Assembly (NCBI GenBank): GCA_964500505.1
Contig: CAZCNN010000001.1
Location: forward strand, 205,056 to 269,055
Reading direction: 5' to 3'
Origin: an uncultured Bdellovibrionales bacterium
GTDB taxonomy: Bacteria; Patescibacteriota; Minisyncoccia; Moranbacterales; UBA1568
DNA: 64,000 nucleotides
Both the position numbers and the translations under genes were made by a program. The notes under the pieces were generated by a model that saw nothing but the letters and a program-made list of their open reading frames with translations, did no database searches and had not been told where the DNA came from. Shown one piece after another: positions 1,988 to 64,000 of this stretch. Position 1 is the stretch's first letter. Every line of letters begins with the position of its first letter.

Positions 1988-2704
1988 TTAGTTGGCAAAG
2001 CAGGCTTGAGGGCAGGCGGACTTGGTTGTGTATCCAGAAAATGCCTTTTGGCCATTTTCCGAACCAAGAATAAACCACTGAGTGGCATCTTGACACAGAT
2101 TCGTCCGTGGATACCAGCCCATGTAGATACTCTTGGGACTCTTGATCTTGCACGGTTTTTCAAGTGCCGTTTCGCAGGTAGGGCGGAGCCAGCCAGTCAC
2201 GGGATAATTCGTACCAAATGCACCTAACGAATACTGACCAGCGGCATTCCTAGAAAGCGAGATACAGAAATTGACATCGTTATTGTTTCCATCCTTACTG
2301 TTATAGAAGTTTTGCTGGGCTACGCAGACTTGACTATCACTCACAGAACGAATAACAGCGACGTGTCCGTGTGTACCCCCGTCAGAAACGAGCACATCCC
2401 CAGCTTGGGGTTGAACTGTAGATTGACCACCCGGATAGTATGCAAGGCCGAGTTTCTTTGCGTTAGTGGCGTAATTCTTCGCATCACCCACTGCTGGCAG
2501 TGCAATTCCGAAGAACTCCTGGTAGTAACGTTTTACAAACTCAACACACTGGTAAATCCCGTCTTCGAGCCTTCCAGAGTTTGAGTAAATTGTAACGCCG
2601 TTATAGTCACCCAGTACAGAACCATATGGCTCTTCAGTAGCGAATATGTTTCCGGCAAACATACAGCCAACTGCGAAAACAACAATAGACGTCTTGCGGG
2701 ACAT
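1988..2704 (-). CDS. Secreted CHAP-domain peptidoglycan amidase/endopeptidase
   Basis: It has a signal peptide (MSRKTSIVVFAVGCMFAGNIFA). QCVEFVKRYY carries the candidate nucleophile Cys, and GHVAVI later in the protein carries the His, matching the CHAP Cys...His arrangement. Confidence 0.65.
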   Translation of the reverse strand: MSRKTSIVVFAVGCMFAGNIFATEEPYGSVLGDYNGVTIYSNSGRLEDGIYQCVEFVKRYYQEFFGIALPAVGDAKNYATNAKKLGLAYYPGGQSTVQPQAGDVLVSDGGTHGHVAVIRSVSDSQVCVAQQNFYNSKDGNNNDVNFCISLSRNAAGQYSLGAFGTNYPVTGWLRPTCETALEKPCKIKSPKSIYMGWYPRTNLCQDATQWFILGSENGQKAFSGYTTKSACPQACFAN

Positions 2705-2807
2705 GTGAAAACTCCTAAATTGTCAAAGGGCAGAACGGGCTAGTGCCCACCTACGAACCCCAAAAAAATTTAGAATCCGTATAGTAAGCAAAAGCCAGAA
2801 AAAAAGA

Positions 2808-3473
2808 TTAGCGAACTAGTCCAAATGACTCTATCATTTTCTCATAAGTGCTCAAAGTATCACTTTGAATCTGGGTACCATTCGGATCGTACGTATATGC
2901 TAAAAGAAACATTTCGTTCCCTTTCTTCAAAAGAATAGTAACGACTTTTACACCAACTGGGTGATCTGTATTAGTTCTCTCAATCTTATATGCCATTTCA
3001 CCATTAATTTCAGGAAAACTTCTCTTTTCGTCTCCCTCAACATGACCGTATTTAAACTGATCATAAGAAATATTCGGATCAATCCTAAAAACTACTAAGC
3101 TTAGTTGTTTAATATCAAGAGGTCTATTGCCTAAATTAAAATTGTAAGCATCAGAATAGTTCGAAAATAGGGTATCGCCCCCCATAAGCTCTGCGTCTTC
3201 TTTCGGCCCACGCTGGGAAAAATCTTGATTTGCAAAACGGTCATCAACATACCACCCTTTTGGATACCGCATTGAATATCCGTACTTCTCATTCCGGTAC
3301 GTCTTCCAATCAGACGTATCGACATTATTCGTATCTGTATTTTCAGCGGTTTTCACTTCTTCTTTCAAACTATTCTTAGGCACTTCTTGATTCATTTTCT
3401 TGTTCCACACAAAAACTCCCCCAGCAACAATAATGAGTACAATGAGCACTAAGAGAACAAATTTTTTCTGCAT
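2808..3473 (-). CDS. Membrane-anchored hypothetical protein
   Basis: It has an N-terminal TM helix (FVLLVLIVLIIVAGGVFVW) followed by a soluble Tyr/Asp/Asn-rich domain. No motif recognised. Confidence 0.55.
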   Translation of the reverse strand: MQKKFVLLVLIVLIIVAGGVFVWNKKMNQEVPKNSLKEEVKTAENTDTNNVDTSDWKTYRNEKYGYSMRYPKGWYVDDRFANQDFSQRGPKEDAELMGGDTLFSNYSDAYNFNLGNRPLDIKQLSLVVFRIDPNISYDQFKYGHVEGDEKRSFPEINGEMAYKIERTNTDHPVGVKVVTILLKKGNEMFLLAYTYDPNGTQIQSDTLSTYEKMIESFGLVR

Positions 3474-3533
3474 AAGTAAATAAAAAGTTGATTGCTCTGA
3501 CTATATGATGAACGCTGGCGACTGTCAATGGCA

Positions 3534-3560
3534 AAAAAGGGCCCGGAGGCCCTCTTTTCT
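3534..3560 (-). terminator. Intrinsic terminator downstream of the DsbA-like gene
   Basis: On the minus strand the hairpin GGGCC-UCCG-GGCCC is followed by a U6 run. It lies about 20 nt past the stop codon of the 3582..4223 gene. Confidence 0.5.
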
Positions 3561-3581
3561 ATTGCTCTGCTTCCGTGAAAT

Positions 3582-4223
3582 CTATTCGACTTGGTCCTGG
3601 ACTGATTTCTTGAGCGCCTCAAAGCTCTTTGGGTTTTCCATCTTCTGGCCATTCAAGAAAAACGTCGGGGTGCCGGTAATTTTCAGTTCATTGCCAGTGT
3701 CACGATCGCGATTGATCTTGTCATCGAGCGATGCATCCGCCATATCTTGATTGAACCGCTCCATATCGAGACCGATACGACCAGCATAGGCAGGAAAAAT
3801 ACTCTTCATCGGGTCAGCAGCATTTGACCATTCTTTTTGGTTGGCAAAAAGGAGGTCATACATCTCCCAGAATTTGCCCTGTCGTCCAGCGGCCTCAGCG
3901 ACCCGAGCAGCGGGGAGGGCATTGTCATGGATCTGAATGAGTGGATAGTGACGGATGACCACGCGGAGATTGTCGCCCATTTCCTTGCTCAGCTGTTCGA
4001 TAATCGGATAGTAAGCACCGCAAGCCGGGCACTGAAAGTCAGTGTACTCAACGAGCGTCACCGGAGCATCACTCTTGCCTTTGACCCAGTCCGAGTCAGT
4101 GACATCGATAGCAGAGCCGCTGGTCCCGCCCGTTTCTGCTGGAGTACCAAAGCCGACCTTCCATATGCCCCACACGACGAGTACCAGTACCGCGACTGCG
4201 CCCAATTTCATGAGTCCACCCAT
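3582..4223 (-). CDS. DsbA-like thiol:disulfide oxidoreductase (thioredoxin fold), membrane-anchored or exported
   Basis: It has a CPAC active-site motif in DFQCPACGAYYP and an N-terminal hydrophobic segment. It follows the DsbA-family layout. Confidence 0.8.
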   Translation of the reverse strand: MGGLMKLGAVAVLVLVVWGIWKVGFGTPAETGGTSGSAIDVTDSDWVKGKSDAPVTLVEYTDFQCPACGAYYPIIEQLSKEMGDNLRVVIRHYPLIQIHDNALPAARVAEAAGRQGKFWEMYDLLFANQKEWSNAADPMKSIFPAYAGRIGLDMERFNQDMADASLDDKINRDRDTGNELKITGTPTFFLNGQKMENPKSFEALKKSVQDQVE

Positions 4224-16532: not shown

Positions 16533-17981
16533 TTAGTCATTAAACACAATTCTCACCATGTAATTTTTTCCAACGCTCATCACTTTTCCATTATCATTTG
16601 TACCCACTTCATACTGCCAATCAAGAATTCTTTCCCCATCAATTTCAACCCCACCCTGTTCAATCTTGCGACGGGCATCGGACTTGCTTGTTGCAAAGCC
16701 CTGGTTAAATATGAATTCAGAAAGTTGAGCGGGTGGCCCTTGTGAAGGACTCACATTTTCTGGAATCTCTCCAGCAGACTTGGCCTCATAGAATTTCTTT
16801 GCATCTTCTGACGCAGAAGCACTATGATACATCGTTACAATCTCCTGAGCCAAACGCATCTTGATGGCTCGAACATTACCACCTGTTACTATGTCCTCGG
16901 CAATTTTAGCTATTTCTTCCATCGATAAATCAGTGCAGAGCTCGAAGTAATTCATTACTGATGTATCCGGCAAAGACATCACCTTTAAGAACATCGAATT
17001 CGGTTCATCAGTGATACCAATGTAATTATCCAGACTCTTACTCATTTTTTCCTTACCATCTGTCCCTTCCAATAATTTAAATGCCAGGACCGATTGTTCA
17101 GCCATTTTAGGCGTTTCCTTAGACATCAAGTCTCTACCGACGAGCATATTGAAAGTTTGATCTGTTCCCCCGACTTCCAAATCACAGCTACCATAAATCT
17201 TCGCTAGAGCAATAGAATCCACCCCCTGAAGAACTGGATATAACATCTCATGCATGTACAGCGGTTCACTCTTGTCAATTCTATCCTGAAACATATCACG
17301 TTCTATTAATCTAGAGTGCGTGATATGTCTCAGATTGAACATCAAGTTTATTAAAGTAATAAACTGAGTTTCTGGCTTCTTCAAAAACACATTCTGCATG
17401 CGAGTATTTTGCAGTAGGATAGCCTTCGAAACCAATGAGTTAGGATTATCTTCAATCTGAACTCCACCCTTCTCAATCACCGATTTTACATTTGCAAGAT
17501 TTTCTTTACCAATTTGTCTTGCGACATCGACATCAGCAGGCGAAGCATACCAGTCCATATTTCTAATCCAGCTGAAACTATGGCCATGCAAAATATTGCC
17601 AGCGTTATCTTTTTCGACAGTTAGAATCTTATCTATTTGCTTTAAATACGTAATCACGTTTTTTTCTACTTCCTGCTGGTCAAGCTCTGGTCTAACTTTA
17701 CTTTTCCCAGTCGGATCACCAATCATTGCAGTAAAATCACCTACCAAAAAAATCACCTTACACCCTAAGTTCTGAAATTCGCGCAATTTCCGAAAACATA
17801 CCGCATGTCCAAGATGAATATCGGGACGAGTGGGATCGACGCCGTACTTGATAACAATATCCTTGTCGTATTTCCCGTTATTCTTATCTATGAGTTTTTG
17901 GCGAAACGAACCATCTGGGTCGATGAATTCACCTACCCCGCGACTCAATACTTCGTCAATCTTTTTCTCTATATCTTGCAT
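16533..17981 (-). CDS. tyrS: Tyrosine--tRNA ligase with a C-terminal S4 domain
   Basis: It has a class I HIGH-type motif (PTRPDIHLGH) and KMSKS. The C-terminal S4-like segment is SDARRKIEQGGVEIDGERI. It is longer than typical TyrS because of internal insertions. Confidence 0.82.
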   Translation of the reverse strand: MQDIEKKIDEVLSRGVGEFIDPDGSFRQKLIDKNNGKYDKDIVIKYGVDPTRPDIHLGHAVCFRKLREFQNLGCKVIFLVGDFTAMIGDPTGKSKVRPELDQQEVEKNVITYLKQIDKILTVEKDNAGNILHGHSFSWIRNMDWYASPADVDVARQIGKENLANVKSVIEKGGVQIEDNPNSLVSKAILLQNTRMQNVFLKKPETQFITLINLMFNLRHITHSRLIERDMFQDRIDKSEPLYMHEMLYPVLQGVDSIALAKIYGSCDLEVGGTDQTFNMLVGRDLMSKETPKMAEQSVLAFKLLEGTDGKEKMSKSLDNYIGITDEPNSMFLKVMSLPDTSVMNYFELCTDLSMEEIAKIAEDIVTGGNVRAIKMRLAQEIVTMYHSASASEDAKKFYEAKSAGEIPENVSPSQGPPAQLSEFIFNQGFATSKSDARRKIEQGGVEIDGERILDWQYEVGTNDNGKVMSVGKNYMVRIVFND

Positions 17982-17991
17982 AGATATTTTC

Positions 17992-18282
17992 TTATTTCAA
18001 ACCAAATCGGGCCTTGGCCAGGCGGTACTGGTCATCAGACATTTGGCCCGCTTTGCGCATGGCTTCGAGCGAAGCAAGGATTTCACCCTTGTGCTTTTCG
18101 ATATTCTTGGGGGTCATGGCCTTGCGGAGGGTCTTCTCGCGTTCGGCAGGACTCATGTTCATGAGGCGCTTCATCGCAAAACGCTGGAGCATGTTCATGT
18201 CCTTGGTATCCGGCATACCGGGGATATTCGCCATGTCTTCTTTCTTTTCTTCTTCGTCTTTTTTACTAAAGGGATTCCACAT
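17992..18282 (-). CDS. Small Lys/Glu/Met-rich hypothetical protein
   Basis: It is 96 aa with no TM and is packed between secF and tyrS. It carries Met-rich repeats (MPDTKDMNMLQRFAMKRLMNM). Confidence 0.45.
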   Translation of the reverse strand: MWNPFSKKDEEEKKEDMANIPGMPDTKDMNMLQRFAMKRLMNMSPAEREKTLRKAMTPKNIEKHKGEILASLEAMRKAGQMSDDQYRLAKARFGLK

Positions 18283-33018: not shown

Positions 33019-34104
33019 CTATTTTACCCCCTTCAAAGATTCAATAGCGTGTTTGGCTTCGGAAGAGAGTTTCTTGGGGACGGAGAGCGTTACTGAGACC
33101 AGGTGATCGCCACGGCCGTAGCGCTGGAGATGAGGTACGCCTTTACCCTTGATACGGAAGACCTCCCCTGGCTGAGTCCCAGCCGGGATTTTCATAATCA
33201 CTTCACCCTCGATTGTCTCAATCGAGACCTTGGCCCCGAGCGCCGCTTCAGCAAAGCTCATGGCGTACTCTGTAACAATATCGTCTCCCTTGCGAACCAA
33301 AGTCTCATGCGGTCGCACATGGACATTGACATAGAGATCCCCTGGCCGGCTCCCGGCTTCTCCAGCGGCACCGTGCCCCGAGAGGGAAAGTGTCTGGCCA
33401 TCGCTGATACCAGCGGGGATATCGATACTGACACTTTCTTCACGCTGTGTCCGACCAGCTCCATGACACGTACTACACTGATCCGCATAGGTCTTGCCCC
33501 GACCCTGACACCGATCACAGGTCACAACCTGCTCCATCATGCCAAAGATACTCTGGACAGCCCGACGCACCCGACCAGCACCCAGACACTGCGCACAGGT
33601 GTTTTCTTGGCTCCCGGGTTTGCCGCCCGTCCCGTAACAGGTCTCACACTCGGACAGTTTACGCAAGTGCACTTCACGCTTGACCCCTCGGACCATTTCT
33701 TCGAACGATATCTCCACATCTACCTGGATATCAGCGCCGGCACGAGCCCGTCCACGTCCACCCATCCGTCCACCAAACAAATCAGAAAAAACATCCTCAA
33801 AGCCGGAGCCGTTGAAGTTAAATTCTTGCCCGTTGAAATCAAAACCTCCAAATCCACCAAAGCCTCCCTGGCCCGCGCCACCACCCTGACCCTGGGAGTG
33901 ATAATCCTGACCGGTCTGGTCGTAGCGGGCGCGCTTTTCTTTATTCCCGAGCACCTGGTAGGCCTCGTTAATTTCCTTGAACTTCTTTTCGTCGCCCGTC
34001 CCCTTGTCCGGATGGTACTGGTGGGCCAGCTTGCGAAAAGCCTTTTTGATCTCGTCCTCGGAGGCGCCCCGCGAAACACCGAGCGTACTGTAGTAGTCAG
34101 CCAT
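33019..34104 (-). CDS. dnaJ: Chaperone DnaJ
   Basis: The J-domain carries HPD (YHPDKG). It has a Gly/Phe-rich linker and four CxxCxGxG zinc-finger repeats. Confidence 0.92.
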
Positions 34105-34183
34105 AGGAAAACTGAAAGCATTTAGACAGCTTCTATTCTAGCGTAAAAAGCCAAAATTAGCAATCCCTATACATGAGTGCTAA

Positions 34184-38956: not shown

Positions 38957-39001
38957 GAGATTCCCTCAGGAATTTTTCGTGGTCCATTCCTAGACGTTCA
39001 C

Positions 39002-39059
39002 CCCTGTGAAATACGATATTATCGTGACCACAAGCTTTAGCTTATGGTATTTCACAGGG
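39002..39059 (-). promoter_or_regulatory. Structured 5'-leader element upstream of lepA: a 13-bp perfect inverted repeat closing a ~33-nt loop that contains two sub-hairpins
   Basis: ccctgtgaaatac...gtatttcacaggg is a perfect inverted repeat. It lies 45-100 nt upstream of the lepA GTG. The loop contains AAGCU-AA-AGCUU and ACGAUA-AU-AUCGU mini-hairpins. Confidence 0.4.
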
Positions 39060-39393
39060 TAAACGAAAAATGGCTTTAAAGCAAGATTTCCATGGTAATT
39101 TAGGCACCAACCACAATCTCGTATTGTCGCTAAGAAAGAAAAAAGACGTCCTTGAGATTTCAAGAACGCCTCAAATGTTTGGGCGAGATTCCGCCACTCA
39201 ATCAATCGACCAGAGACATGGCCAGTGTCTCGGTGACATGGCTCTATCTTCTTCACTCGGCTCTGCGGGCTGGACTTCCTCTACCGCTGCCTCATCCTGC
39301 ACCGGAGGCGAAGCATCGAGAGCAAGCAACCGCAGTTCCCGAGCGTTAGCGATTTCAAACATGACCCTACTCCAGTTGGTAAGTTGCGACAAC

Positions 39394-39430
39394 AAAAAAG
39401 CCGGTCTTGCTCTGGGGCGAGACCGGCTTC
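39394..39430 (-). terminator. Intrinsic terminator inside the long lepA-upstream non-coding region
   Basis: On the minus strand the hairpin AGCCGGUCU-CGCCCCAGAGCA-AGACCGGCU is followed by UUUUUU. It lies ~210 nt downstream of the stop of the 39650..40303 gene. Confidence 0.5.
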
Positions 39431-39649
39431 TGTCTACTGTTTCACTTCTTCATCATCCGCGTGTAACAGCAAAAAGAAATCGACCTCGCTTCTCCCAGAA
39501 GAAGAAGCCAGTCATAAACATGAAACACATGGAAATGGTAGTCGAAATTTGTTGCATAAATGTATTCTCAAATTATCAAGACAAGGAGAAAGTGTCAACT
39601 CCATACATGAAACAATCCTCCACCAAAGTCGAGACTCGGCCTACGACCT

Positions 39650-40303
39650 CTAACGCAAAAATTCAATGGACTTCAGAAGTGGTTCAGCATTATGCGTAAG
39701 TTCAAACACAAAGCCTGCATTCTCTAGAAACCAACGGTCTGAACAAATACTCGGCATCTCACCAACGACTGACTCATCTTCCGGACACCGTAACGCGTAC
39801 GCTTGCTTCCCATATATATCAACCGGACCTTCCAACACAAAATCAGTAGTAGGGGCAATTTCCTTTTGTTTGGCAGTCACGAAATCTAATAAACTCCCTT
39901 CCCAAGGGGTAATGACAATACCAGAAACCGTATTAAAACTAAAAGTACCAGACTGCATATCCGAGGATTGCGGACAATTCATGGAAATATCTATATATGC
40001 AATTTGAGTGAGGGTATCAATATATGGTTTATAAAAGCATACTCCTTCTCCTTGATGCTTTTCTGGATATGTAAATTTGAATCCAAACTCACTACTGGTG
40101 TAAGATAGCAAACCCACCTCTTCTGTTGCTGGATTGACGTCTTTCTTCTGCGAATCTTGTATTATTTTTTCTGTACTAGCAACCTGATAGTACATCGGTT
40201 CTTGACTATTATCTTTTTCAATAATCCAAACGAAATAGCCAGCAGTAAAAGCCATGACAAGTAATACTGCGGTCCCGAGGCCTGTTGAGACTTTTTGATT
40301 CAT
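39650..40303 (-). CDS. Membrane-anchored hypothetical protein
   Basis: It has an N-terminal TM (LGTAVLLVMAFTAGYFVWII) and a soluble domain. No motif recognised. Confidence 0.55.
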   Translation of the reverse strand: MNQKVSTGLGTAVLLVMAFTAGYFVWIIEKDNSQEPMYYQVASTEKIIQDSQKKDVNPATEEVGLLSYTSSEFGFKFTYPEKHQGEGVCFYKPYIDTLTQIAYIDISMNCPQSSDMQSGTFSFNTVSGIVITPWEGSLLDFVTAKQKEIAPTTDFVLEGPVDIYGKQAYALRCPEDESVVGEMPSICSDRWFLENAGFVFELTHNAEPLLKSIEFLR

Positions 40304-40344
40304 AATATTTTATCTCTATTTTATATACTATACCATAAAAAATT

Positions 40345-41994
40345 CTACCAATCCCCGCGTTCGGGGTGGTCTTCGGTGAGCGTGGCGGCTTCGGGCTGGC
40401 GGAGGACGCGACAGAGAACAAAGCGCTTGATGCGACCGAGTTCTTCCACTTTGAGGAGATAGGCGAAGAGGACGTAAGCACCACCACCGATGGTAAAGCC
40501 AAGCGCCAGCTGGAGGAATACCTCGATAAACGTATCGAGTTCATTGGTGGTGAGAGCAAAGACAGACTTGGATATCTGAGCGACTGCCCCAGCGAGGAGC
40601 GAGGCGAGAAGGATCTTGGCTACCGGCACCACGATGAGCTTGTCCTCCCAAAATGAGAGCTGCCGACGGAGAAAAAAATACAGAAGACCGAAGTTGAGGA
40701 TGGTGCTCACAGAAAAAGCGATGGCTAGTCCCTCAACCTGGTAGAGAGGGAGGAGGAATGGAATAAGCGCGATATGGACTGCTTCACTCACAAGCGCGAT
40801 GTACAGTGGAGTCTTGGTGTTCTGAAGGGCAAAGAAAGCTCGGGCAAAGAGTGGGATGAGACTCTGAGCAAAGAGGGAGAGGGCGAGGAACTTGAGGATC
40901 TCAAAAGTCGTGATGGTATCCTGCCAGTCGAAGTTGCCGGACCCGAGAATAACACGGACACACTGGGCGCGAAAGATAATGATAAAGATCGAAAGTGGGA
41001 CGACAAAGAAAAGTATTTTACGAGCCGTCTCGGCAAACATCCGGAAAAAATCTCGATCACTTTTCTTGGCAGCAAAAAGAGCGAGCGCCGGAAAGACTGC
41101 GAGCGAAAACGCGATGCCAAAGAGTCCAAGGGGCACACTCTGGATGTTATTGGCGAGGGTAAATGAGGCCAAGCTCCCCGACACCAGGGTCGAGGCGAAA
41201 ACGGTCATCACGAGAAGTCCTACCTGATTGACGGCCATACCGAGTGAACGAGGAATCATGAGCGTGAGCACTCGTCTCACGTTTGTATCATGCCAGGCAG
41301 AGAACATCCGAAAGCGAAATCCGGCTCGCCGTATCGCCGGATACTGCACCACGAGATGGAACGCTGACCCGAGTACGACTCCCCAGGCCAAGCCCATCGG
41401 TCCAAAATACTGCGACAAAACTACTGCCCCAATAATGATACCGATATTGTAGAAAACTGGCGCGAAGGAATAGGCAGCAAATTGCTTGAAGGACACGAGT
41501 ACTCCCCCAAATACCGCGCTCGCAGCCAAGAAAAGTGGCGAGAGAAGCATGATACGGGTGAGGTCAGTCACCAGAGCCTGCTTCTCGGGAGCAAAGCCTG
41601 GCGCCAGAACATCAGTGATAAAGGGAGCAAAAAGAATACCAAGAAGTGAGAATGCTCCGATAGAAAAGAGTGTGGTGTGAAGTACACCTGAAGTGAGCTT
41701 CCAGGCTTCTGCCTCTTTGTCCTTGGCTATGAGCTCAGTAAAAATAGGGACAAAGGCAGCTGAGAGTGCCCCAAGCACGAGAAATCCATACACCAAGTCT
41801 GGGAGTCGAAAGGCAGCATAGTAGGCATCCAAAATATCCCCGGCTCCAAACGTAGAAGCGAGGACACGGTCCCTGATAAACCCTAAGAATCGACTCGCAA
41901 TCCCCGCAAACGCAATGAGGAGCGCTGCCGTACCGACGGTGGCGCTTGGAGTGCTCCCGAGTGAAGCAAAGTAATGATAGAGTCGCTTGATCAT
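40345..41994 (-). CDS. murJ: Lipid II flippase MurJ (MviN)
   Basis: The N-terminal GFIRDRVLASTFGAGDILDAYYAAFRLPD is typical of MurJ. It is about 14 TM and 549 aa. Confidence 0.85.
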   Translation of the reverse strand: MIKRLYHYFASLGSTPSATVGTAALLIAFAGIASRFLGFIRDRVLASTFGAGDILDAYYAAFRLPDLVYGFLVLGALSAAFVPIFTELIAKDKEAEAWKLTSGVLHTTLFSIGAFSLLGILFAPFITDVLAPGFAPEKQALVTDLTRIMLLSPLFLAASAVFGGVLVSFKQFAAYSFAPVFYNIGIIIGAVVLSQYFGPMGLAWGVVLGSAFHLVVQYPAIRRAGFRFRMFSAWHDTNVRRVLTLMIPRSLGMAVNQVGLLVMTVFASTLVSGSLASFTLANNIQSVPLGLFGIAFSLAVFPALALFAAKKSDRDFFRMFAETARKILFFVVPLSIFIIIFRAQCVRVILGSGNFDWQDTITTFEILKFLALSLFAQSLIPLFARAFFALQNTKTPLYIALVSEAVHIALIPFLLPLYQVEGLAIAFSVSTILNFGLLYFFLRRQLSFWEDKLIVVPVAKILLASLLAGAVAQISKSVFALTTNELDTFIEVFLQLALGFTIGGGAYVLFAYLLKVEELGRIKRFVLCRVLRQPEAATLTEDHPERGDW

Positions 41995-49968: not shown

Positions 49969-50023
49969 TTGGCTATTTTAGCAGAAAAACTCATTCCTTG
50001 AAATTCGTCGAGACGCTCCTGCA

Positions 50024-50386
50024 TTATTGAAACTGCCCGTTTTGTTTTTCACGAATCTTTGGAATTTTGTGATCGAGGGCCTGCATAATATCGACGTTTA
50101 GTGCCTTGGCCAACATGAAAGTACAGATAACGACATCAGCAAACTCATCCTGCAAATCAGTCGGTGCATGATCCTTCATCTTGTCCTTACGCTGTCCGCC
50201 TATTGATGCCAAGACTTCATCACACAGTTCGCCATACTCTTCTCCTAGTTTAATGATCCGCGCAAACATGTGCTCCCGCTCACTGAAATCATCCTCCCGA
50301 AGCGCTCGAAACATCGCATCCTGCTCGTCGATAAATTTTTGGAGTTCTTCTATGGTCATACGCCCAACAGTTACTCTTTTGCTCAT
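50024..50386 (-). CDS. MazG-like nucleoside triphosphate pyrophosphohydrolase (small single-domain form)
   Basis: It has the EExGE-type motif region (LGEEYGELCDEV) and DEFADVVICTFMLA, typical of MazG-like all-alpha NTP-PPases. Confidence 0.7.
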   Translation of the reverse strand: MSKRVTVGRMTIEELQKFIDEQDAMFRALREDDFSEREHMFARIIKLGEEYGELCDEVLASIGGQRKDKMKDHAPTDLQDEFADVVICTFMLAKALNVDIMQALDHKIPKIREKQNGQFQ

Positions 50387-50413
50387 TATACCACCCCTCT
50401 TTCTTCTCTCACG

Positions 50414-50453
50414 AATAACTCATCTATCCACGACCGTTAAGAGATGAGTTACT
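50414..50453. repeat. Copy 1 of a ~40-bp palindromic repeat (AATAACTCATCTAT-N-AGATGAGTTACT) in the mazG 5' leader
   Basis: aataactcatctatccacgaccgttaagagatgagttact contains a 9-bp inverted repeat aactcatct/agatgagtt with a 16-nt spacer. It is ~90% identical to copy 2. Confidence 0.6.
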
Positions 50454-50474
50454 ACAAAAAACAGAAAATCTTAT

Positions 50475-51065
50475 CTACTCCAACTGAAATGTCTTCCGTA
50501 ACCGCATATCATTCTCGATATCGCTTGCAACGATATACACCAACTCTTTACCTGCTTTATACCGAGTTTTCAAAAGCGAGATGACCTCCTCACATTCGTA
50601 CGGATATACCCAAACACTATCTTGGAGTTTCTCAAAACCAAACACCTTCATATCTATTCTGATACGATCACGTGCAGATCGCCTCTTTTCAGCAATATCA
50701 AAAATAACAATTCTCCACTTCTTATCCCATCGTCCACTCTTGATTCGCTTCTCCCGTAATTGGTACTTCAGTAATTCTTGTTGACCCTTATCCGTAAGAT
50801 ACGCCCGTGTCTCACCATTTTTGACAACAATTCGTACCATCCCACGTCGCTCCAAACTCTTCATTGTTCTCCGTATATATGACGGGATTTGATATCGAGG
50901 CGCCACCAAACGTTCGTATCCACGAAATATCCTTACTACTTGAAAAACTCCTGGCGCCATCATGCCGACCCCTATTACTCCTGCCACTCCAAGAGCACCA
51001 AGAATTATTCTCGCTACCAATCCATATGAATCAGTTTCTCTTGTTTGTTTTTCTACCCGTTTCAT
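50475..51065 (-). CDS. PaaX-like transcriptional regulator (winged helix plus PaaX-C-like domain) with an N-terminal transmembrane segment
   Basis: The wHTH is YIRRTMKSLERRGMVRIVVKNGETRAYLTDKGQQEL. The C-terminal block KWRIVIFDIAEKRRSARDRIRIDMKVFGFEKLQDSVWVYP resembles the PaaX C-terminal domain. The N-terminal hydrophobic helix is LVARIILGALGVAGVIGVGMMAPGVF. Confidence 0.55.
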   Translation of the reverse strand: MKRVEKQTRETDSYGLVARIILGALGVAGVIGVGMMAPGVFQVVRIFRGYERLVAPRYQIPSYIRRTMKSLERRGMVRIVVKNGETRAYLTDKGQQELLKYQLREKRIKSGRWDKKWRIVIFDIAEKRRSARDRIRIDMKVFGFEKLQDSVWVYPYECEEVISLLKTRYKAGKELVYIVASDIENDMRLRKTFQLE

Positions 51066-51074
51066 AACTTTTCT

Positions 51075-51114
51075 AATAACTCATCTATACACGACCGTGA
51101 AGAAATGAGTTATT
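51075..51114. repeat. Copy 2 of the ~40-bp palindromic repeat, 10 nt upstream of the PaaX-like gene start
   Basis: aataactcatctatacacgaccgtgaagaaatgagttatt is the same palindrome and spacer length as copy 1. Confidence 0.6.
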
Positions 51115-51153
51115 CGCATATGAAGAGAAAGCGTGTTACTTGATATCAGTAGC

Positions 51154-51804
51154 TCAATACTGGGAAAAGTCTTGAGTTGAGCCTTCGGTCATGTCGACAT
51201 ATTTGATGCCAAGTGGCTCGAGGATCATGGTCGGGATGCGGCGGGTGGGTCCGAGTTCTATCCCCTGGCGAAGCATTCCGTCGTGAACCGGGAACACCAC
51301 TTTTGGCTTGATGAGTTTGGCGTACTCAATCGCCTCTGAAAGCTTCATCCATGGCCCCGCCACTGGCAGAGCGAGGATGGTCACTGCCTTCTCTGGATTG
51401 TGAAATGAGTCACCCGGATAAAAGAGTGTTCTATCGATAAAAAATCCGGTATTCTGCACTACTGGTAAATCATGATGGATACAGGCGTGCTCACTCCCAC
51501 TACTCTCGACACTCACACCCCGTACCTCTACCGTCTCTCCGTCCGCGATGGACGTATAGGTGATACCTGCTCCATCCAATATTTTCCCTACTCCGATATG
51601 TGTAATAACCTGCGCCTCCGGATTCTTGGCAAGAATAATTTGGAGTGCCTCGACATGGAGGTGATCCGGATGCTCATGTGTTATGAGTATCGCATCAATC
51701 CCCTCTACCATCGGGGTCTCATTATAGTTCCCTGGGTCAGTGAGTATCCACACTCCCTTTACTTCGATGAGCAGACAACAATGGCCAAATTTGGTGATGA
51801 TCAT
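51154..51804 (-). CDS. MBL-fold metallo-hydrolase
   Basis: It has the HxHxDH motif (ILITHEHPDHL) plus downstream His/Asp ligands (HDG, SGSEHA). Confidence 0.8.
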   Translation of the reverse strand: MIITKFGHCCLLIEVKGVWILTDPGNYNETPMVEGIDAILITHEHPDHLHVEALQIILAKNPEAQVITHIGVGKILDGAGITYTSIADGETVEVRGVSVESSGSEHACIHHDLPVVQNTGFFIDRTLFYPGDSFHNPEKAVTILALPVAGPWMKLSEAIEYAKLIKPKVVFPVHDGMLRQGIELGPTRRIPTMILEPLGIKYVDMTEGSTQDFSQY

Positions 51805-51811
51805 ACTAGCC

Positions 51812-52546
51812 TTAATTAGTCCTTCTTATTTTTTCAAGAACCATCCCTAAAATAATAAAAAACAATCCCCCTATAAGCCATTTAATTTTGGAAAGAACCC
51901 AGATGTACCTTGCATAAGAACGCGTCTCCTTTTCTGTAATAACAAAAACAATTTTTGGGAAAAAGTAATCAAATATTTCATTTATCCAAGTAAGCGCGAT
52001 AACAAATACAAGTATATATAAGAAGTCTATTAAAAATGTTTCAGAAATACTACTAAGATAATACCAGTACCCCAGGTAAGCAGCTAAACAGATTTTCAGG
52101 AACAACAAAAAAGAAGATTTTACTTGAGATGGGACAATATCATCATCAAAAATAAAGGCATACCAGAAACGATCTCCCATCAAGGCCTTTTCAAAACGAT
52201 TTATAAAACCATCATCCACATCATCGTGGCAATCACGATATGAATAATTTACATTCCAAAATAGATGTTTTTCAAATCTTAAGTACAGATCCTCCGTGAA
52301 TAAATCTGTTTGATTGTTTTTGTAAGCGTAGACTGTTATATTCTTGATTTTCTCATCCCCTATTTTATCAAAAAGTTCAAACAACTCATCATATGTCATC
52401 TTATAAGCAGACCTACTATTGGTCTCTATGCTATAAAGAAGCCTAGAAAAATTTCCTCGTAAAAAATCGTCAATTTTTTGAAGATATTTCGTATCAATCA
52501 TTCTAGACCTTACAAGAAATTGATTGTAGGTAGTCGTGGTACTCAT
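51812..52546 (-). CDS. Hypothetical membrane protein, strongly AT-rich relative to its neighbours
   Basis: It has a 140-aa N-terminal soluble Tyr/Asp/Phe/Asn-rich domain and 3-4 C-terminal TM helices. Local GC is visibly about 33% against about 55% in the flanks. It is packed 7-8 nt from both neighbours. Confidence 0.5.
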   Translation of the reverse strand: MSTTTTYNQFLVRSRMIDTKYLQKIDDFLRGNFSRLLYSIETNSRSAYKMTYDELFELFDKIGDEKIKNITVYAYKNNQTDLFTEDLYLRFEKHLFWNVNYSYRDCHDDVDDGFINRFEKALMGDRFWYAFIFDDDIVPSQVKSSFLLFLKICLAAYLGYWYYLSSISETFLIDFLYILVFVIALTWINEIFDYFFPKIVFVITEKETRSYARYIWVLSKIKWLIGGLFFIILGMVLEKIRRTN

Positions 52547-52552
52547 ATATAC

Positions 52553-53554
52553 TTACCGTTTTTCGTACTGTTCAGTATAGTACTTTTGATACTCGCCACT
52601 CTTCACGTTTTTCCACCAGGTCTCGTTCTCTTTGAACCAAGCGACGGTTTGGGCGAGACCCTCTTCGAGGGTCACCGTCGGTTCCCAACCAAGCTCGGTT
52701 TTAATCTTGGTGAAGTTGATCGCGTAGCGTCGGTCGTGACCAGCGCGGTCCTTTACGTATTCGATAGACGACTCATCCTTGCCCAAAAGTTCAAGGAGCT
52801 TCTTCACAATGACAATATTCTCGGTCTCGGCATTACCGCCAATACAATAGGTCTCGCCAATTTTCCCCCGGTGAATGATCATGTCGATAGCACGACAATG
52901 GTCCTCGACGTAGAGCCAGTCACGCACCTGGAGACCATCACCATAGACCGGCACGGACTTGCCCTCAAGAAGATTGGTGATAGCGAGTGGGATGAGCTTC
53001 TCCGGAAAGTGATACGGACCGTAGTTATTGGAGCAGTTGGAGATAGTCACCGGAAGGCCATAGGTATGGTAGTACGCGCGGACCAGGTGGTCAGAGGCAG
53101 CCTTGGAGGCGCTATAGGGACTACGGGGATCATACGGGGTCGACTCATCAAAGGGGGCGTCGTCCATGCCCAATGATCCAAACACCTCATCGGTTGAGAC
53201 ATGATGAAAGCGTTTGCCATGTTTCTTGGCGGCTTCGAGGAGGACATAGGTCCCATGGACATTGGTCACGACGAAAGCCCCGGGATCCATGATCGAGCGG
53301 TCAACATGTGACTCAGCGGCAAAGTGGACGACGATGTCACACTCGGCTACGAGCCCATCGACGAGTGTGGCGTCCGTGATACTCCCTTTCACAAAGCGGT
53401 GCTGTGGATTCTCCTCGGCACTCTTCAAATTCTCCAGGTTCCCAGCATAGGTCAGGTCATCGAGCGTCACCACCTCGTACTCAGGATACTTTCCGAGGAT
53501 AAAGTGAACAAAATTACTGCCAATAAATCCAGCTCCTCCTGTGACCAATAGCTT
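52553..53554 (-). CDS. rfbB: dTDP-glucose 4,6-dehydratase (RmlB); start taken at the internal MKLLVTGG
   Basis: It has the Rossmann motif TGGAGFIGSNFV, the catalytic YSASKAASDHLV and the extended SDR fold. The track ORF carries a 26-aa 5' extension. Confidence 0.88.
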   Translation of the reverse strand, partial: KLLVTGGAGFIGSNFVHFILGKYPEYEVVTLDDLTYAGNLENLKSAEENPQHRFVKGSITDATLVDGLVAECDIVVHFAAESHVDRSIMDPGAFVVTNVHGTYVLLEAAKKHGKRFHHVSTDEVFGSLGMDDAPFDESTPYDPRSPYSASKAASDHLVRAYYHTYGLPVTISNCSNNYGPYHFPEKLIPLAITNLLEGKSVPVYGDGLQVRDWLYVEDHCRAIDMIIHRGKIGETYCIGGNAETENIVIVKKLLELLGKDESSIEYVKDRAGHDRRYAINFTKIKTELGWEPTVTLEEGLAQTVAWFKENETWWKNVKSGEYQKYYTEQYEKR

Positions 53555-60896: not shown

Positions 60897-61213
60897 ACGA
60901 CTATAAAAATTCAAAGCCCAAATTACAAACACCCAACAAAATCCAAAACTCCAATGACCAAAAACCAAATTCCAGAAACTTTAGGAATTCCCCACTTTCA
61001 CCCACTTTTCTTATCTACCTCCACATTTTATACCACCGAGAGACACAGCGTCAACCCCGCACCTTTTTGGCTTAAAAGAGACCTATTGTCGAAAAGAGTA
61101 TGAGTTATACACCTCACCACGAACAAAAAGGTGTCGGGTCAACACAAAAGTTATTCACCCAGTGAAATTGCTCATACTTGAGCGCTGGCAAAGCCAGTAT
61201 TTCACCGGGTAAA

Positions 61214-61243
61214 CCAAAAAAACGGCCTTTTCAGGCCGTTCTT
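61214..61243 (-). terminator. Intrinsic terminator at the downstream end of the low-GC island
   Basis: On the minus strand AACGGCC-UGAAAA-GGCCGUU is followed by UUUUUUU. It lies ~25 nt after the stop of the 61264..61650 gene. Confidence 0.55.
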
Positions 61244-61263
61244 AACCTATATCCACACTTCTA

Positions 61264-61650
61264 TCATCTCTGACCCTCAAGAATCTTTACCCTCAGACTA
61301 AGCTCATCTATTCTTTTTGTATATTTTTCATACTGCCTAGCACTATCCCTGTAATAGTCAAAAAAGAATGGAATAGCAGCAAAGAAAAATCCAATTATGA
61401 TGACTGTTGCGACAGTCATCATAAAATTCATTGCCTTATTCTGACTTTTTTCAGATAGAATTAGTGATTTCCGAATATCCCTAGCTTTATCTTCAAGATT
61501 CTTTGTTTTTTCTTCAAGAACGTAAATTCTATCTGCTGTTTTTGCAGAACCACCACTCGCTAATGAAAAATTTGACTTGCTAGCATCTGAAGTCCCAATC
61601 CCAGTCGAAGCTTCTGTTATAAGTCCATCAAACATTTTCATGATACTCAA
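61264..61650 (-). CDS. Small hypothetical protein with a coiled coil, one TM helix and a second coiled coil (island gene 4)
   Basis: It is 128 aa with a TM at MMTVATVIIIGFFFAAIPFFF, flanked by charged helical segments. It lies in the low-GC region. Confidence 0.5.
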   Translation of the reverse strand: MSIMKMFDGLITEASTGIGTSDASKSNFSLASGGSAKTADRIYVLEEKTKNLEDKARDIRKSLILSEKSQNKAMNFMMTVATVIIIGFFFAAIPFFFDYYRDSARQYEKYTKRIDELSLRVKILEGQR

Positions 61651-62077
61651 TTACAATAGATGTACCCTCATCAATAATTTCATCGTCTAAAAATACCTTC
61701 ACGACGTACTTTCCGGCAATTACGAATGGAACCCCTACAAGATTTGCAATGAAATTAGCTCCTCCTTCAGTGTTTTTAACTTCAACCATACCCCCGACCG
61801 AAACCACTAGTTTGTTGTCGGGTGATACTATTTCAACTTTTACCTTGTGCGTGCCGACTTCACTGGTCACATTTAACGAAATAGCGAACCCTGGCTGTAC
61901 AACAGGCAGTCTTGTGGTAATGATCTTGTCAAATATACCTATAACACTCAGTTTTCCTTCTTGCGAAAAAAAAGCATTCTCACTCACATGTACAAAATTT
62001 GTTTTTTTCATATTCTCATATTCAAAAAATGACGGTTGCGGTACTACCGTGAGAATTAAGCGCGTATGCAACAACAT
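61628..62077 (-). CDS. Hypothetical beta-rich protein (island gene 3); the likely start is the internal MKKTNF near 62011
   Basis: It has alternating hydrophobic and polar beta-strand-like segments (KVKVEIVSPDNKLVVSVGGMVEVKNTEGG). No motif recognised. Low GC. Confidence 0.5.
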   Translation of the reverse strand: MLLHTRLILTVVPQPSFFEYENMKKTNFVHVSENAFFSQEGKLSVIGIFDKIITTRLPVVQPGFAISLNVTSEVGTHKVKVEIVSPDNKLVVSVGGMVEVKNTEGGANFIANLVGVPFVIAGKYVVKVFLDDEIIDEGTSIVIEYHENV

Positions 62078-62429
62078 CGCTCATTGCTTTCTCATCCTTA
62101 ACAGGATATGGGAGATCAACAACATATGTACATGGAGAAATACCTTGGATTTGAAAAAGAATTCCACTTCGAAGTAACTCAGCCTCGACACCTGAACCTG
62201 CGTATGTAGAGTAACTTCCTTCTCCTACATAGGATGTTACGGTAACCGTATAAAGAGCATCAGTGTCAGCACTAAACGACAATTCACCAGAGAGCAACAC
62301 TACTCCACCCGCTTGACTTACAGCCGACGTAACTTTTCCCTGTGACTCCCAATTTACGATGTAGAAATTATGCATACGGTTTTGTGTTATCAGTCTATTC
62401 ATTGTTGCGCGTCCAGTCCGAGCGGTCAA
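62022..62429 (-). CDS. Hypothetical Ser/Thr/Gly-rich beta-rich protein (island gene 2)
   Basis: It is 135 aa. No motif recognised. It overlaps the downstream gene's track start. Confidence 0.45.
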   Translation of the reverse strand: MTARTGRATMNRLITQNRMHNFYIVNWESQGKVTSAVSQAGGVVLLSGELSFSADTDALYTVTVTSYVGEGSYSTYAGSGVEAELLRSGILFQIQGISPCTYVVDLPYPVKDEKAMSDVVAYALNSHGSTATVIF

Positions 62430-62454
62430 CTATCAGCCTTTCAAGCCTAAAAGA

Positions 62455-63477
62455 CTACTTCCATCCCTGATTGATGTTTCGCCAAATGATCTGTTCGTGC
62501 TGAACATTTATCATACCCTGCGGGGTCTGCTGAGGCACCATTTGCTTGTGTCTCTTGAGTTCCAGGGTAATCCCAAAGTAGTTGCTATTCTCTGTGGATT
62601 CCACAAAAGCGATTTGGTACTCTTTACGACTTTCCATCTTGCCTTCTATCTCAGTATCCGCATTCCAAGCCTCTGTTACTTTCATCTCACTACTATACGC
62701 CTCGTATACCTCAGTCATCAGGCCCGAGAGCTCGACATCAGCCTCGACCACAGACTTGATACCCAGATCCTCTTTGGCCTCCTTACGACCGATGTAGTAT
62801 TGGTGTGAATAGAGCTTCTCGGTCAAAAACTCGATTACTTTCTCGATCTCATCCTCTTTCATGGGTTGCTTGTGACTCTTAAGAAGTCGCTTGGCCAAAA
62901 TCTTGATGAGGTTATGGGTCCGATTGACATTGCCCAATGCAAGCGGGTGTATAGAGGGATTGCTCTCTACGAATTTGTTGAAAATCTTTGTCAATTCCTC
63001 ATCACTCTTGATACCAAACTTGTTTTTGGCCAAGTCAAAATAGCTCATCACCTCTTCCACTGAGATAGGGATGCGATTCTGGGGATTCTGGGGATCAACG
63101 GGATTGAAAAAGTTTGAAGTCGAAGGGTCAATGGGCGAGAGTTCACTCATGTCACTCATCACGATTTCATCTGCCCCCAGAGCAATCATGGTCGCAGCGC
63201 TATGGGCTTTGTATGGTATGACCACTGAAAAATGTGTGCAGTACTCTCGAATCATGGATACCAGTCGCCATGGCACCATTGTATCGCCCCCAGAGCTATA
63301 GAGTACCAGGTCTATTTTTTCTGTCTTTCCAATCTTCCGAAGCTGCGCACTGATAATAGGAATGATATCTACGGCCACACGCGCATTCACCGGACCCTGC
63401 CGATCACTCGTCACATAAGTCACCACTCGGGAACCGCGGAGTGCTTCCATTTTCTTGATCAGGTCGTTCCGTTCCAT
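62455..63477 (-). CDS. SDH/S49-type ClpP-fold serine peptidase with a ~170-aa uncharacterised C-terminal domain (island gene 1)
   Basis: IDLVLYSSGGDTMVPWRLVSMIREYCTHFSVVIPYKAHSAATMIALGADEIVMSDMSELSPIDP matches the serine-dehydrogenase-proteinase/S49 core. It has no TM helix. Low GC. Confidence 0.6.
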   Translation of the reverse strand: MERNDLIKKMEALRGSRVVTYVTSDRQGPVNARVAVDIIPIISAQLRKIGKTEKIDLVLYSSGGDTMVPWRLVSMIREYCTHFSVVIPYKAHSAATMIALGADEIVMSDMSELSPIDPSTSNFFNPVDPQNPQNRIPISVEEVMSYFDLAKNKFGIKSDEELTKIFNKFVESNPSIHPLALGNVNRTHNLIKILAKRLLKSHKQPMKEDEIEKVIEFLTEKLYSHQYYIGRKEAKEDLGIKSVVEADVELSGLMTEVYEAYSSEMKVTEAWNADTEIEGKMESRKEYQIAFVESTENSNYFGITLELKRHKQMVPQQTPQGMINVQHEQIIWRNINQGWK

Positions 63478-63512
63478 ACTGCAAATGAGTTATATATCGC
63501 TAAACACCATCA

Positions 63513-63540
63513 TTGTAGCACCAGCTGATACTTTCGTAAA
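63513..63540 (-). promoter_or_regulatory. Candidate sigma70-like promoter for the island operon
   Basis: On the minus strand TTTACG is followed by a 16-17 nt spacer and TACAAT. The -10 lies ~35 nt upstream of the ATG at 63477. The half-site ATAACTCAT lies between the promoter and the ATG. Confidence 0.3.
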
Positions 63541-63565
63541 GGGTTTTTTGTTTGGGGTGTGCTAT

Positions 63566-64000
63566 CTACAACTTTTCCAGCACTTTCACGAGGAGGCGGA
63601 CAGGGGCGCCGGCGGAGCCTTTGGCCAGGAATTCATCAGGGAGCGTGGTCATGCGTGGGGCGATATCGAGGTGGACCCAAGGATAGGCCTGGTCGACAAA
63701 CTGCTTGAGAAATACCGCTGCCGTGATCGCACCGCCATAGCGCGTACGACCGAGGTTGGCCACGTCACCAAAAGTGCCCTTGATTTCTGCATCATACTCA
63801 TCCCACAGTGGCAGTGGCCAGACATGGTCACCACTTTCTTCACCGAGATGACGGAGCTTCATTTCGAGTTTCTCATCGGCCGTAAAAAGCGCCGACGCCC
63901 GTTCTCCGAGCGCCCCCATGGCAGCGCCAGTGAGAGTCGCGACATCGATGACGAGCGACGGACGGTAGCGCTTGGCATAGTGGAGCGCATCAGCGAGGAT
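63566..64000 (-). CDS. pepA: Leucyl aminopeptidase (M17 family), C-terminal part; the gene continues beyond the window end
   Basis: Manual translation to the window edge gives ...YAKRYRPSLVIDVATLTGAAMGALGE.., which includes the DxATLTGA M17 motif. The track ORF from the internal Met covers only the last 117 aa. Confidence 0.85.
   Translation of the reverse strand: MLADALHYAKRYRPSLVIDVATLTGAAMGALGERASALFTADEKLEMKLRHLGEESGDHVWPLPLWDEYDAEIKGTFGDVANLGRTRYGGAITAAVFLKQFVDQAYPWVHLDIAPRMTTLPDEFLAKGSAGAPVRLLVKVLEKL

Follow-up and report, generated by a model that had tools for sequence, protein, structure and literature searches.

Hotspots in which accessory genes turn over between conserved neighbors have been described for the E. 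coli pan-genome (PMC10121019) and for P2/P4 (PMC9122126). The locus analyzed here, the interval between pepA and mraZ in a 64,000-nucleotide stretch of an uncultured bacterium (assembly GCA_964500505.1, contig CAZCNN010000001.1, positions 205,056 to 269,055; hereafter the window), resembles such defense-island hotspots in its fixed conserved boundaries, in a content that differs between close strains and, across its counterparts in other genomes, in a mixture of restriction-modification (R-M) genes and unknown small genes. It is unlike them in that its left boundary is one accessory gene, here called gene A and encoding an SDH-type ClpP-fold serine protease, which lies at differing chromosomal sites by lineage, so that the hotspot travels with the gene. 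It is also unlike them in that its breakpoint is the stop codon of that gene and remnants of the gene's 3' end mark stacked insertions. These features recall Rhs/CdiA orphan arrays and integron arrays, as new modules adjoin a conserved gene with older ones displaced downstream, a fragment of the A 3' end precedes each displaced module (six loci), and the cassettes have no obvious promoters of their own. Unlike in Rhs/CdiA, the variable part is not fused to A, whose C-terminus is invariant in all aligned homologs, and unlike in integrons, no integron integrase lies in the window flanks and the cassettes end in hairpin plus T-run terminators (three genomes). The hotspot literature on the E. coli pan-genome and P2/P4 does not mention the A locus, and we found no description of a hotspot tied to an ultraconserved accessory gene with stop-codon breakpoints and stacked 3' remnants.

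Tentatively, we read this locus as a conserved anchor gene A adjoining a hotspot of exchangeable accessory cassettes, occupied in this genome by an orphan gene plus an immunoglobulin-like (Ig-like)/membrane module of probable conflict function. An earlier note on this DNA had described four tightly packed, same-strand genes wedged between pepA and the dcw cluster, preceded by a sigma70-like promoter and closed by an intrinsic terminator, and both the arrangement and the two predicted expression signals were recovered in our analysis. The features of the locus are as follows.

63919..63566, minus strand: 3' end of pepA, left flank of genes A to D
63512..63540, minus strand: promoter-like site upstream of A, with -35 TTTACG, a 17-nt spacer and a TG-extended -10 TACAAT (consensus scan, 9/12 plus TG)
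62455..63477, minus strand: gene A, SDH-type ClpP-fold serine protease of 340 amino acids (aa), the conserved anchor gene (open reading frame and Pfam SDH_protease)
61038..62454, minus strand: variable cassette of 1.4 kb with B, C, D and the terminator; GC 0.398
62022..62402, minus strand: gene B, orphan of 126 aa from its ATG, with a TTG start at 62429; fills the variable slot between the protease and C
61628..62011, minus strand: gene C, DUF6941 protein of 127 aa, predicted Ig-like beta-sandwich; start backed by homolog alignment
61264..61641, minus strand: gene D, predicted bitopic membrane protein of 125 aa with helical flanks; shares 14 nt with the end of C
61218..61243, minus strand: intrinsic terminator closing the cassette, with an 11-bp stem, a 4-nt loop and a T run
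61159-61138 and 61113-61103, minus strand: right-junction motif GGTG(A/T)ATAACT(TTTGTGTTGAC), two partial extra copies, from the sequence and the alignment with two relatives
61025..61054, minus strand: mraZ promoter region (TTGACG-18-TAAAAT, 10/12 matches), right conserved edge of the variable segment
60896..60462, minus strand: mraZ, right flank, followed by rsmH, ftsL and a PBP gene

Comparison with two relatives that carry A at the same pepA-SDH-[cassette]-mraZ position (L091 and L262) revealed where the conserved and the variable parts of the locus meet. L091 shares 96.1% DNA identity with the window over pepA and A; its similarity ends precisely at the A stop codon and resumes at 61037, in the mraZ promoter, at 100% identity. 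L262 is more distant (79% identity over pepA and A, 71% over mraZ/rsmH) and shows the same synteny and both breakpoints, with the blastn break on the A side falling at 62455/62454 against either relative. The right edge is sharply conserved, such that the mraZ promoter is 92-100% identical to both relatives over ~50 nt, compared with 71% for the mraZ/rsmH coding DNA of L262. Between these edges the window cassette has no DNA similarity to L091 or L262 by blastn. In L091 the space is taken up by a tail-anchored protein of 95 aa from another family, by a DUF6941 protein with 36% identity to C, and by a membrane/coiled-coil protein in which no similarity to D could be detected, while in L262 it holds only a DUF6941 gene (C'', 30% to C) and a 161-aa membrane protein (D''). 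Each of the two relatives closes its cassette with its own, different hairpin and T run just before the mraZ promoter. The exchanged unit is thus the B-C-D segment alone, replaced by non-homologous but analogous genes, and because A is resident and exchange is confined to these 1.4 kb, a conserved anchor plus a variable cassette describes the four genes better than a single system does. The earlier note had taken all four for one horizontally acquired module, which holds for B-C-D and fails for A, given its residency in both relatives, a GC content that tracks the host and synonymous sites near saturation. The possibility of a core operon, which that note had left to be checked in relatives, is likewise answered in two halves, A being kept between pepA and mraZ and the cassette differing in both L091 and L262.

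The right junction carries a possible record of earlier events. In L091 and L262 the junction motif is single and lies directly between the terminator and the mraZ -35, and the extra partial copies in the window, at 61103-61159, may be scars of earlier cassette exchanges.

Similar replacement is seen well beyond these three genomes. We surveyed the 80 loci closest to the query, drawn from species-representative genomes, in which 197 proteins downstream of A fell into 90 clusters comprising many unrelated families and singletons, and in which the 1.2 kb 3' of A had a GC content below that of the host in 67 of 73 loci (mean 0.06 lower). Two further syntenic pairs (L063/L067 and L029/L030) show the hotspot pattern of conserved flanks and differing content that unites the window with L091 and L262, in that A is conserved better than the flanks, similarity stops at its stop codon, and unrelated cassettes of unequal length follow. 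Even A proteins that are 97-99% identical precede different cassette families. In six loci (L013, L020, L030, L049, L061, L079) the final 47-103 nt of A recur as a direct repeat (88-93% identity) some 150-1600 bp downstream. The repeat stops at, or a few nt from, the stop codon, and another cassette gene follows it at the usual spacing. Such a footprint would be expected were a new cassette to bring its own A 3' end and push the old junction downstream. A 272-277-aa Bro-N protein is the first gene after A in L013, L019, L020 and L092-L094, and its place between A and the 3' remnant in L013 and L020 marks it as the latest insertion in those two loci.

As to what the cassettes contain, most loci have a small co-oriented gene 2-70 nt after A, and a membrane protein is among the first three downstream genes in 45 of 70. 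Besides DUF6941, the families that recur are small proteins bearing membrane helices at the N- or C-terminus, or pairs that combine one soluble with one coiled-coil multi-pass membrane protein, with no match in Pfam or PADLOC for any of these small families. Behind the cassettes, a type III Mod gene was found in 14 and Res in 9 of the 80 loci (raw counts with no background rate), single loci carry EcoRI-type and C5 methylases, DpnI, HinP1I and EcoRII, and Bro-N, RadC, Fic and RhuM genes also occur in the region. The surroundings of one locus (L001) include SLFN/AlbA_2, HNH, HpaII, Vsr and Fic genes. When 93 downstream proteins from other loci were searched, PADLOC identified R-M components alone among the 25 families listed of 160 matched, and Pfam identified R-M, Bro-N, RadC, DUF2726 and housekeeping families. 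The window cassette itself has no known defense gene. One locus (L037) has A with no cassette at all. No recombinase-like reading frame was found at 58-64 kb of the window, where the neighbors are pepA, mraZ, rsmH, ftsL and the PBP gene, and no integrase or mobile-element backbone was seen in the other loci, which were not screened systematically.

Within the window, spacing is 52 nt between A and B, 10 nt between B and C, and -14 nt between C and D. The AT-rich island of the earlier note exists as a stepwise dip, modest over A (GC 0.469) and strong over B, C and D (0.420, 0.380 and 0.349), set against a window mean of 0.509 and a background of ~51-53% rather than the 55% first estimated. Other low-GC stretches in the window (0.39-0.47 versus ~0.52) lie at 2001-4000, 17001-18000, 39001-41000 and 50001-53000, the last in a region of sugar-nucleotide and cell-envelope genes that follows the dcw cluster. 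Both promoter-like hexamers upstream of A are kept in L091 and L262, with the adjacent intergenic bases diverged. The terminator folds at -16.3 kcal/mol (centroid) to -18.6 kcal/mol (minimum free energy), with a z of -2.77 and none of 200 shuffles as stable. A terminator-like signal was also flagged within gene D at 61395-61424 on the minus strand, where the codons of the membrane helix contain a perfect 13-bp inverted repeat (4-nt loop; TTATGATGACTGTCGCAACAGTCATCATAA), with T-rich sequence after it; this signal may be chance or an internal attenuator.

Evaluating the anchor gene further, we found that A belongs, as judged from its sequence, to the SDH family by Pfam (PF01972; 59.1 bits against a gathering threshold of 31.3, best stretch residues 2-123) and is not an equivalog of the NCBI model (NF047768; 69.1 bits, under the cutoff of 250). 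The SDH-type assignment agrees with the earlier note. Like SDH-type proteinases in general, A has a ClpP/crotonase fold in its model and the Ser-Asp-His order, with His225 falling in the C-terminal half. S93 and H225 are invariant and D117 is >=90% conserved in alignments of 77 and 47 sequences with phage homologs included, and G63 and G64 are likewise invariant in alignments reaching down to 33-48% identical relatives and the phage homologs. The ~170-aa stretch that had been set apart as an extra domain is an integral part of the enzyme, because it holds the invariant His225. The AlphaFold model (77 sequences; pLDDT 94, pTM 0.90) has an alpha/beta half that resembles ClpP, a helical central part and, at the C-terminus, a long sheet of three strands, falls within the ClpP/crotonase-type fold, and has NfeD and SppA among its nearest solved folds, while the PDB held no sequence relative of A even by profile search. 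The A clade is unlike other SDH-type proteinases in being a tight, exceptionally conserved subgroup that has the C-terminal three-strand sheet and scores under the NCBIfam cutoff. It is also unlike the proteases of NfeD (STOPP)-stomatin operons, as A scores under the NfeD cutoff (NfeD1b_N, 12.9 bits, cutoff 40) and is without a membrane segment, D has no SPFH domain, and the partners are hypervariable. We predict that A is catalytically intact as an SDH-type ClpP-fold serine protease and that the purifying selection acting on it is very strong. A literature search on PF01972, SDH proteinase, DUF6941 or ClpP-like anti-phage proteins returned nothing relevant.

Homologs of A come almost entirely from metagenome-assembled genomes (MAGs) of Candidatus Moranbacteria and other Parcubacteria, with the best 120 of 2325 matches 70-99% identical and mostly Moranbacteria, and with A 66-86% identical across many Parcubacteria lineages. 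The window itself, whose sequence is also present on a 330-kb NCBI contig and two Logan contigs, belongs to the chromosome of a candidate-phyla-radiation bacterium. We detected 196 A loci in species genomes spanning many Parcubacteria groups, within which A appears patchy (an estimate, as the total of Parcubacteria species in the collection was uncounted). In a library clustered at 50% identity, the entire candidate-phyla-radiation A clade forms one cluster, and the score drops from 655 to 330 bits at the next relative. Across genome pairs with both proteins, the mean identity of A is 78.7% versus 69.7% for DnaK, with A ahead of DnaK in 22 of the 28. Every pair likewise shows A to be better conserved than GrpE, DnaJ, FKBP, Mod and Res, and 43 of 45 pairs show the same against RadC. 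Four-fold synonymous sites of A have a median identity of 0.34 over 3160 pairs (0.41 for A versus 0.34 for DnaK in the same genome pairs), and because such sites are near saturation, the divergence is old and the similarity reflects selection, not recent spread. Recent horizontal spread, which we considered as an explanation of the similarity, is on this ground unsupported and may have made a modest contribution. The GC content of A tracks that of its host (75 loci, mean difference +0.007).

Two observations concern individual genomes in this set. Two MAGs have two A copies on separate contigs with differing downstream genes (JAUSHZ01, L061 and L070; JBAYIQ01, L055 and L076). Several Parcubacteria-type A contigs (L006, L007, L013, L014, L047, L053, L078 and others) are labelled Bdellovibrionales, Saccharibacteria, Gammaproteobacteria, Omnitrophota or Smithella, probably owing to mislabelled or contaminated bins.

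Turning to viruses, no close relative of the candidate-phyla-radiation A clade was found in 2.9 million viral contigs. Members of the broader SDH family, which comprises 523 clusters at E < 1e-30, are frequent on viral contigs derived from prophages and often lie close to the end of the contig. Distant homologs occur in temperate phages after the tail genes (Gordonia phage BeeGee), beside HicAB (Porphyromonas phages), and between C and the lysis genes (a Shewanella Mu-like phage). An E. coli homolog of 331 aa, 38% identical to A and annotated as "SDH family Clp fold serine proteinase", stands alone on the opposite strand in the interval between the lambdoid Q antiterminator and the holin of a plasmid-like prophage (NZ_CP081704.1; L096:2229-3224), and is present in 47 of 5426 complete genomes with all copies >=99% identical. 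These positions are classic for conflict-related cargo, not for head genes. Among viral models (BFVD), Foldseek ranked giant-virus serine dehydrogenase proteinases above phage ClpP/S49 proteases for A. Such SDH-type proteinases are multicopy in giant viruses (Hyperionvirus, Klosneuvirus, Edafosvirus and others) and are the closest viral folds to A.

Of the three small genes, B had no match in Pfam, PHROG, PADLOC or NCBIfam and no homolog in 2.36 Mb of related loci, its 90% cluster holds this strain only, and its slot in other loci is taken by unrelated genes or empty. C is a DUF6941 protein (E 5.7e-20) whose model is a nine-strand Ig-like beta-sandwich (pLDDT 96), and D has one predicted membrane helix at residues 69-97 with helical segments on either side, both in keeping with the beta-rich and membrane proteins that had been read at these positions. 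D gave a weak, sub-threshold synaptobrevin-like match and no SPFH/stomatin match. PADLOC-DB 2.0 returned no match at E <= 1 for A, B, C or D, and together with the literature result this agrees with the earlier view of the unit as accessory and undescribed.

DUF6941 is present in 17 of 81 loci plus L091, always after A in these. A D-family gene follows the C-family gene in most DUF6941-bearing GTDB loci, often with a 4-14-nt overlap, and metagenome loci pair likewise. The overlapping C and D of the window are probably translationally coupled. Sampling DUF6941 independently of A revealed three contexts: after A with a D-type partner; without A and with a small downstream partner, not classed as D-family (L181, where it adjoins a type III R-M system, and L180); and directly after dnaK in ~45 of 76 metagenome loci. 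Behind the broader SDH family outside the candidate phyla radiation, no DUF6941 was found in 80 viral loci. That DUF6941 and a partner occur without A, that A occurs without a cassette, and that cassettes are swapped behind near-identical A together speak against treating the four genes as one system, as the earlier note did.

Our preferred reading of an anchor with exchangeable cassettes would work as follows. The segment from the A stop codon to the mraZ promoter would be a recombination hotspot at which short, low-GC, promoter-poor cassettes are swapped and stacked between lineages, transcribed from the protease promoter and ended by their own terminators. Exchange would proceed by homology-anchored recombination, for which conserved A and the mraZ promoter would provide the arms, perhaps following DNA uptake. 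The cassette genes would most likely be passengers acting independently of the protease and probably of the conflict or defense class, with C perhaps binding a ligand (a phage or foreign protein, for example) while D acts at the membrane.

Several observations weigh against this reading. The window cassette contains no remnant of the A 3' end by blastn-short or nhmmer. Nor did an empty site, with pepA next to mraZ and A missing, turn up, although no search aimed at one was completed. Since no small cassette family matches a catalogued defense protein, it is neighborhood alone that speaks for a conflict role. The conservation of A is odd for a hotspot bystander, and A could instead be the common partner of all cassettes; the conservation figures are themselves somewhat inflated, as the 80 loci were chosen by similarity to the query. 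Finally, A and DUF6941 have independent links to heat-shock operons, which favor a role in proteostasis: in several of the 11 loci that have grpE upstream, A lies between grpE and dnaK and 3' of the CIRCE in front of hrcA, and a DUF6941 subfamily follows dnaK with a gap of 0-3 nt in 18 of 31 complete cases.

A related possibility, which we consider rather unlikely, is that A is a dedicated landing pad for a cassette pool shared across candidate-phyla-radiation bacteria, integron-like without an integrase. The near-invariant 3' end of A would then serve as the recombination site and new cassettes would enter promoter-proximally. A stronger version adds A as the common executor of all cassettes.

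That executor role is central to another explanation, unlikely in our judgment, in which the locus is one protease-centered conflict system. A would be its unvarying executor, acting for instance by cleavage of a conserved target in host or phage in an abortive-infection-type response, and the downstream genes would be interchangeable sensors, adaptors or membrane effectors processed by or controlling A. The small co-oriented gene close behind A, the frequency of membrane proteins among the first three genes and the soluble plus coiled-coil membrane layout common to cassette types (C and D; cluster 4 and cluster 5) are consistent with such partners, as are a constant enzyme with fast-changing partners, which would fit an arms race, and the R-M-rich context. 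In the Gordonia phage and the Shewanella Mu-like phage, too, one or two unknown genes follow the A homolog. Against this stand the 97-99% identical A proteins with unrelated cassettes, as specific recognition would then require a shared short motif, and no such terminal motif (a possible protease tag) was seen by eye among the unrelated cassette proteins. DUF6941 and a small downstream partner exist without A, A occurs alone (L037 and the E. coli prophage), clearly autonomous systems such as R-M and Bro-N genes fill the same slot, and there is no PADLOC match.

We regard as doubtful, and improbable on balance, a third explanation in which the locus is a stress-proteolysis module, with A as an ATP-independent protease, C as a substrate adaptor related to a DnaK-operon protein and D as a membrane tether, by analogy with the NfeD protease and its stomatin partner. 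Of the 80 loci, 11 have GrpE upstream of A, 10 have DnaK and 9 have an HrcA-like gene, and the order hrcA-grpE-[A...]-dnaK-dnaJ recurs in several lineages. The dnaK-linked DUF6941 proteins (~140 aa, order hrcA-grpE-dnaK-DUF6941; loci L196-L261, e.g. L211:5001-5414, and L180:4001-4432) diverge in step with DnaK (r 0.86), look vertically stable, and suggest an undescribed DnaK-operon protein in one candidate-phyla-radiation clade. A module of this kind would also agree with the conservation of A at the level of core proteostasis enzymes and with its closest solved folds, NfeD and SppA, which act on membrane substrates. It accords poorly with the exchange of partners for 30-36% identical or unrelated proteins even at 96% DNA identity, with the unrelated families in the same slot and the R-M neighbors, and with the apparent patchiness of A, itself an estimate. 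Moreover, a DUF6941-carrying genome with no A nearby (L181) has a canonical ClpP, the dnaK-linked subfamily lacks a D-type partner, D is without an SPFH/stomatin domain, and no CIRCE precedes A in the window. dnaK may be just another highly conserved recombination anchor. The sole CIRCE in the window, a near-perfect inverted repeat with one mismatch at 34131-34157, lies upstream of a dnaJ-like gene (33019-34104, minus strand), and dnaK and grpE lie outside the window.

The weakest explanation, also raised in the earlier note, is a decayed prophage that left a ClpP-fold prohead protease with scaffold or decoration proteins; some tailed phages do use ClpP-fold proteases and A has weak N-terminal matches to PHROG 1684 (E 1.3e-10) and the head maturation protease model NF045542, yet we reject it as highly improbable, because the head-protease matches amount to ~70 residues of shared ClpP core (PHROG matches spanning only residues 42-112) and fall far under cutoff (NF045542, 37.3 bits versus 120), the best full-length PHROG match is uncharacterised (E 3e-41), no capsid, portal, terminase or integrase gene lies near A-D, the flanks are housekeeping genes syntenic in relatives, the A clade is absent from the viral contigs, its phage homologs sit outside head modules, and its best viral folds are the SDH proteinases of giant viruses.

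The genomes of candidate-phyla-radiation bacteria are tiny, few defense systems have been recognised in them, and the acquisition and turnover of their accessory genes are poorly understood. For these bacteria, A would offer a simple marker for fast-evolving, probably conflict-related genes in thousands of uncultured genomes, and the cassettes behind it would give about ten new small-protein families, the DUF6941/membrane pair included. Experimental routes are opened by the DUF6941 protein of another clade, which is apparently translationally coupled to dnaK, and by the E. coli prophage homolog, which resides in a tractable host. The A locus would also represent a possible case of homology-anchored cassette exchange without a dedicated recombinase.

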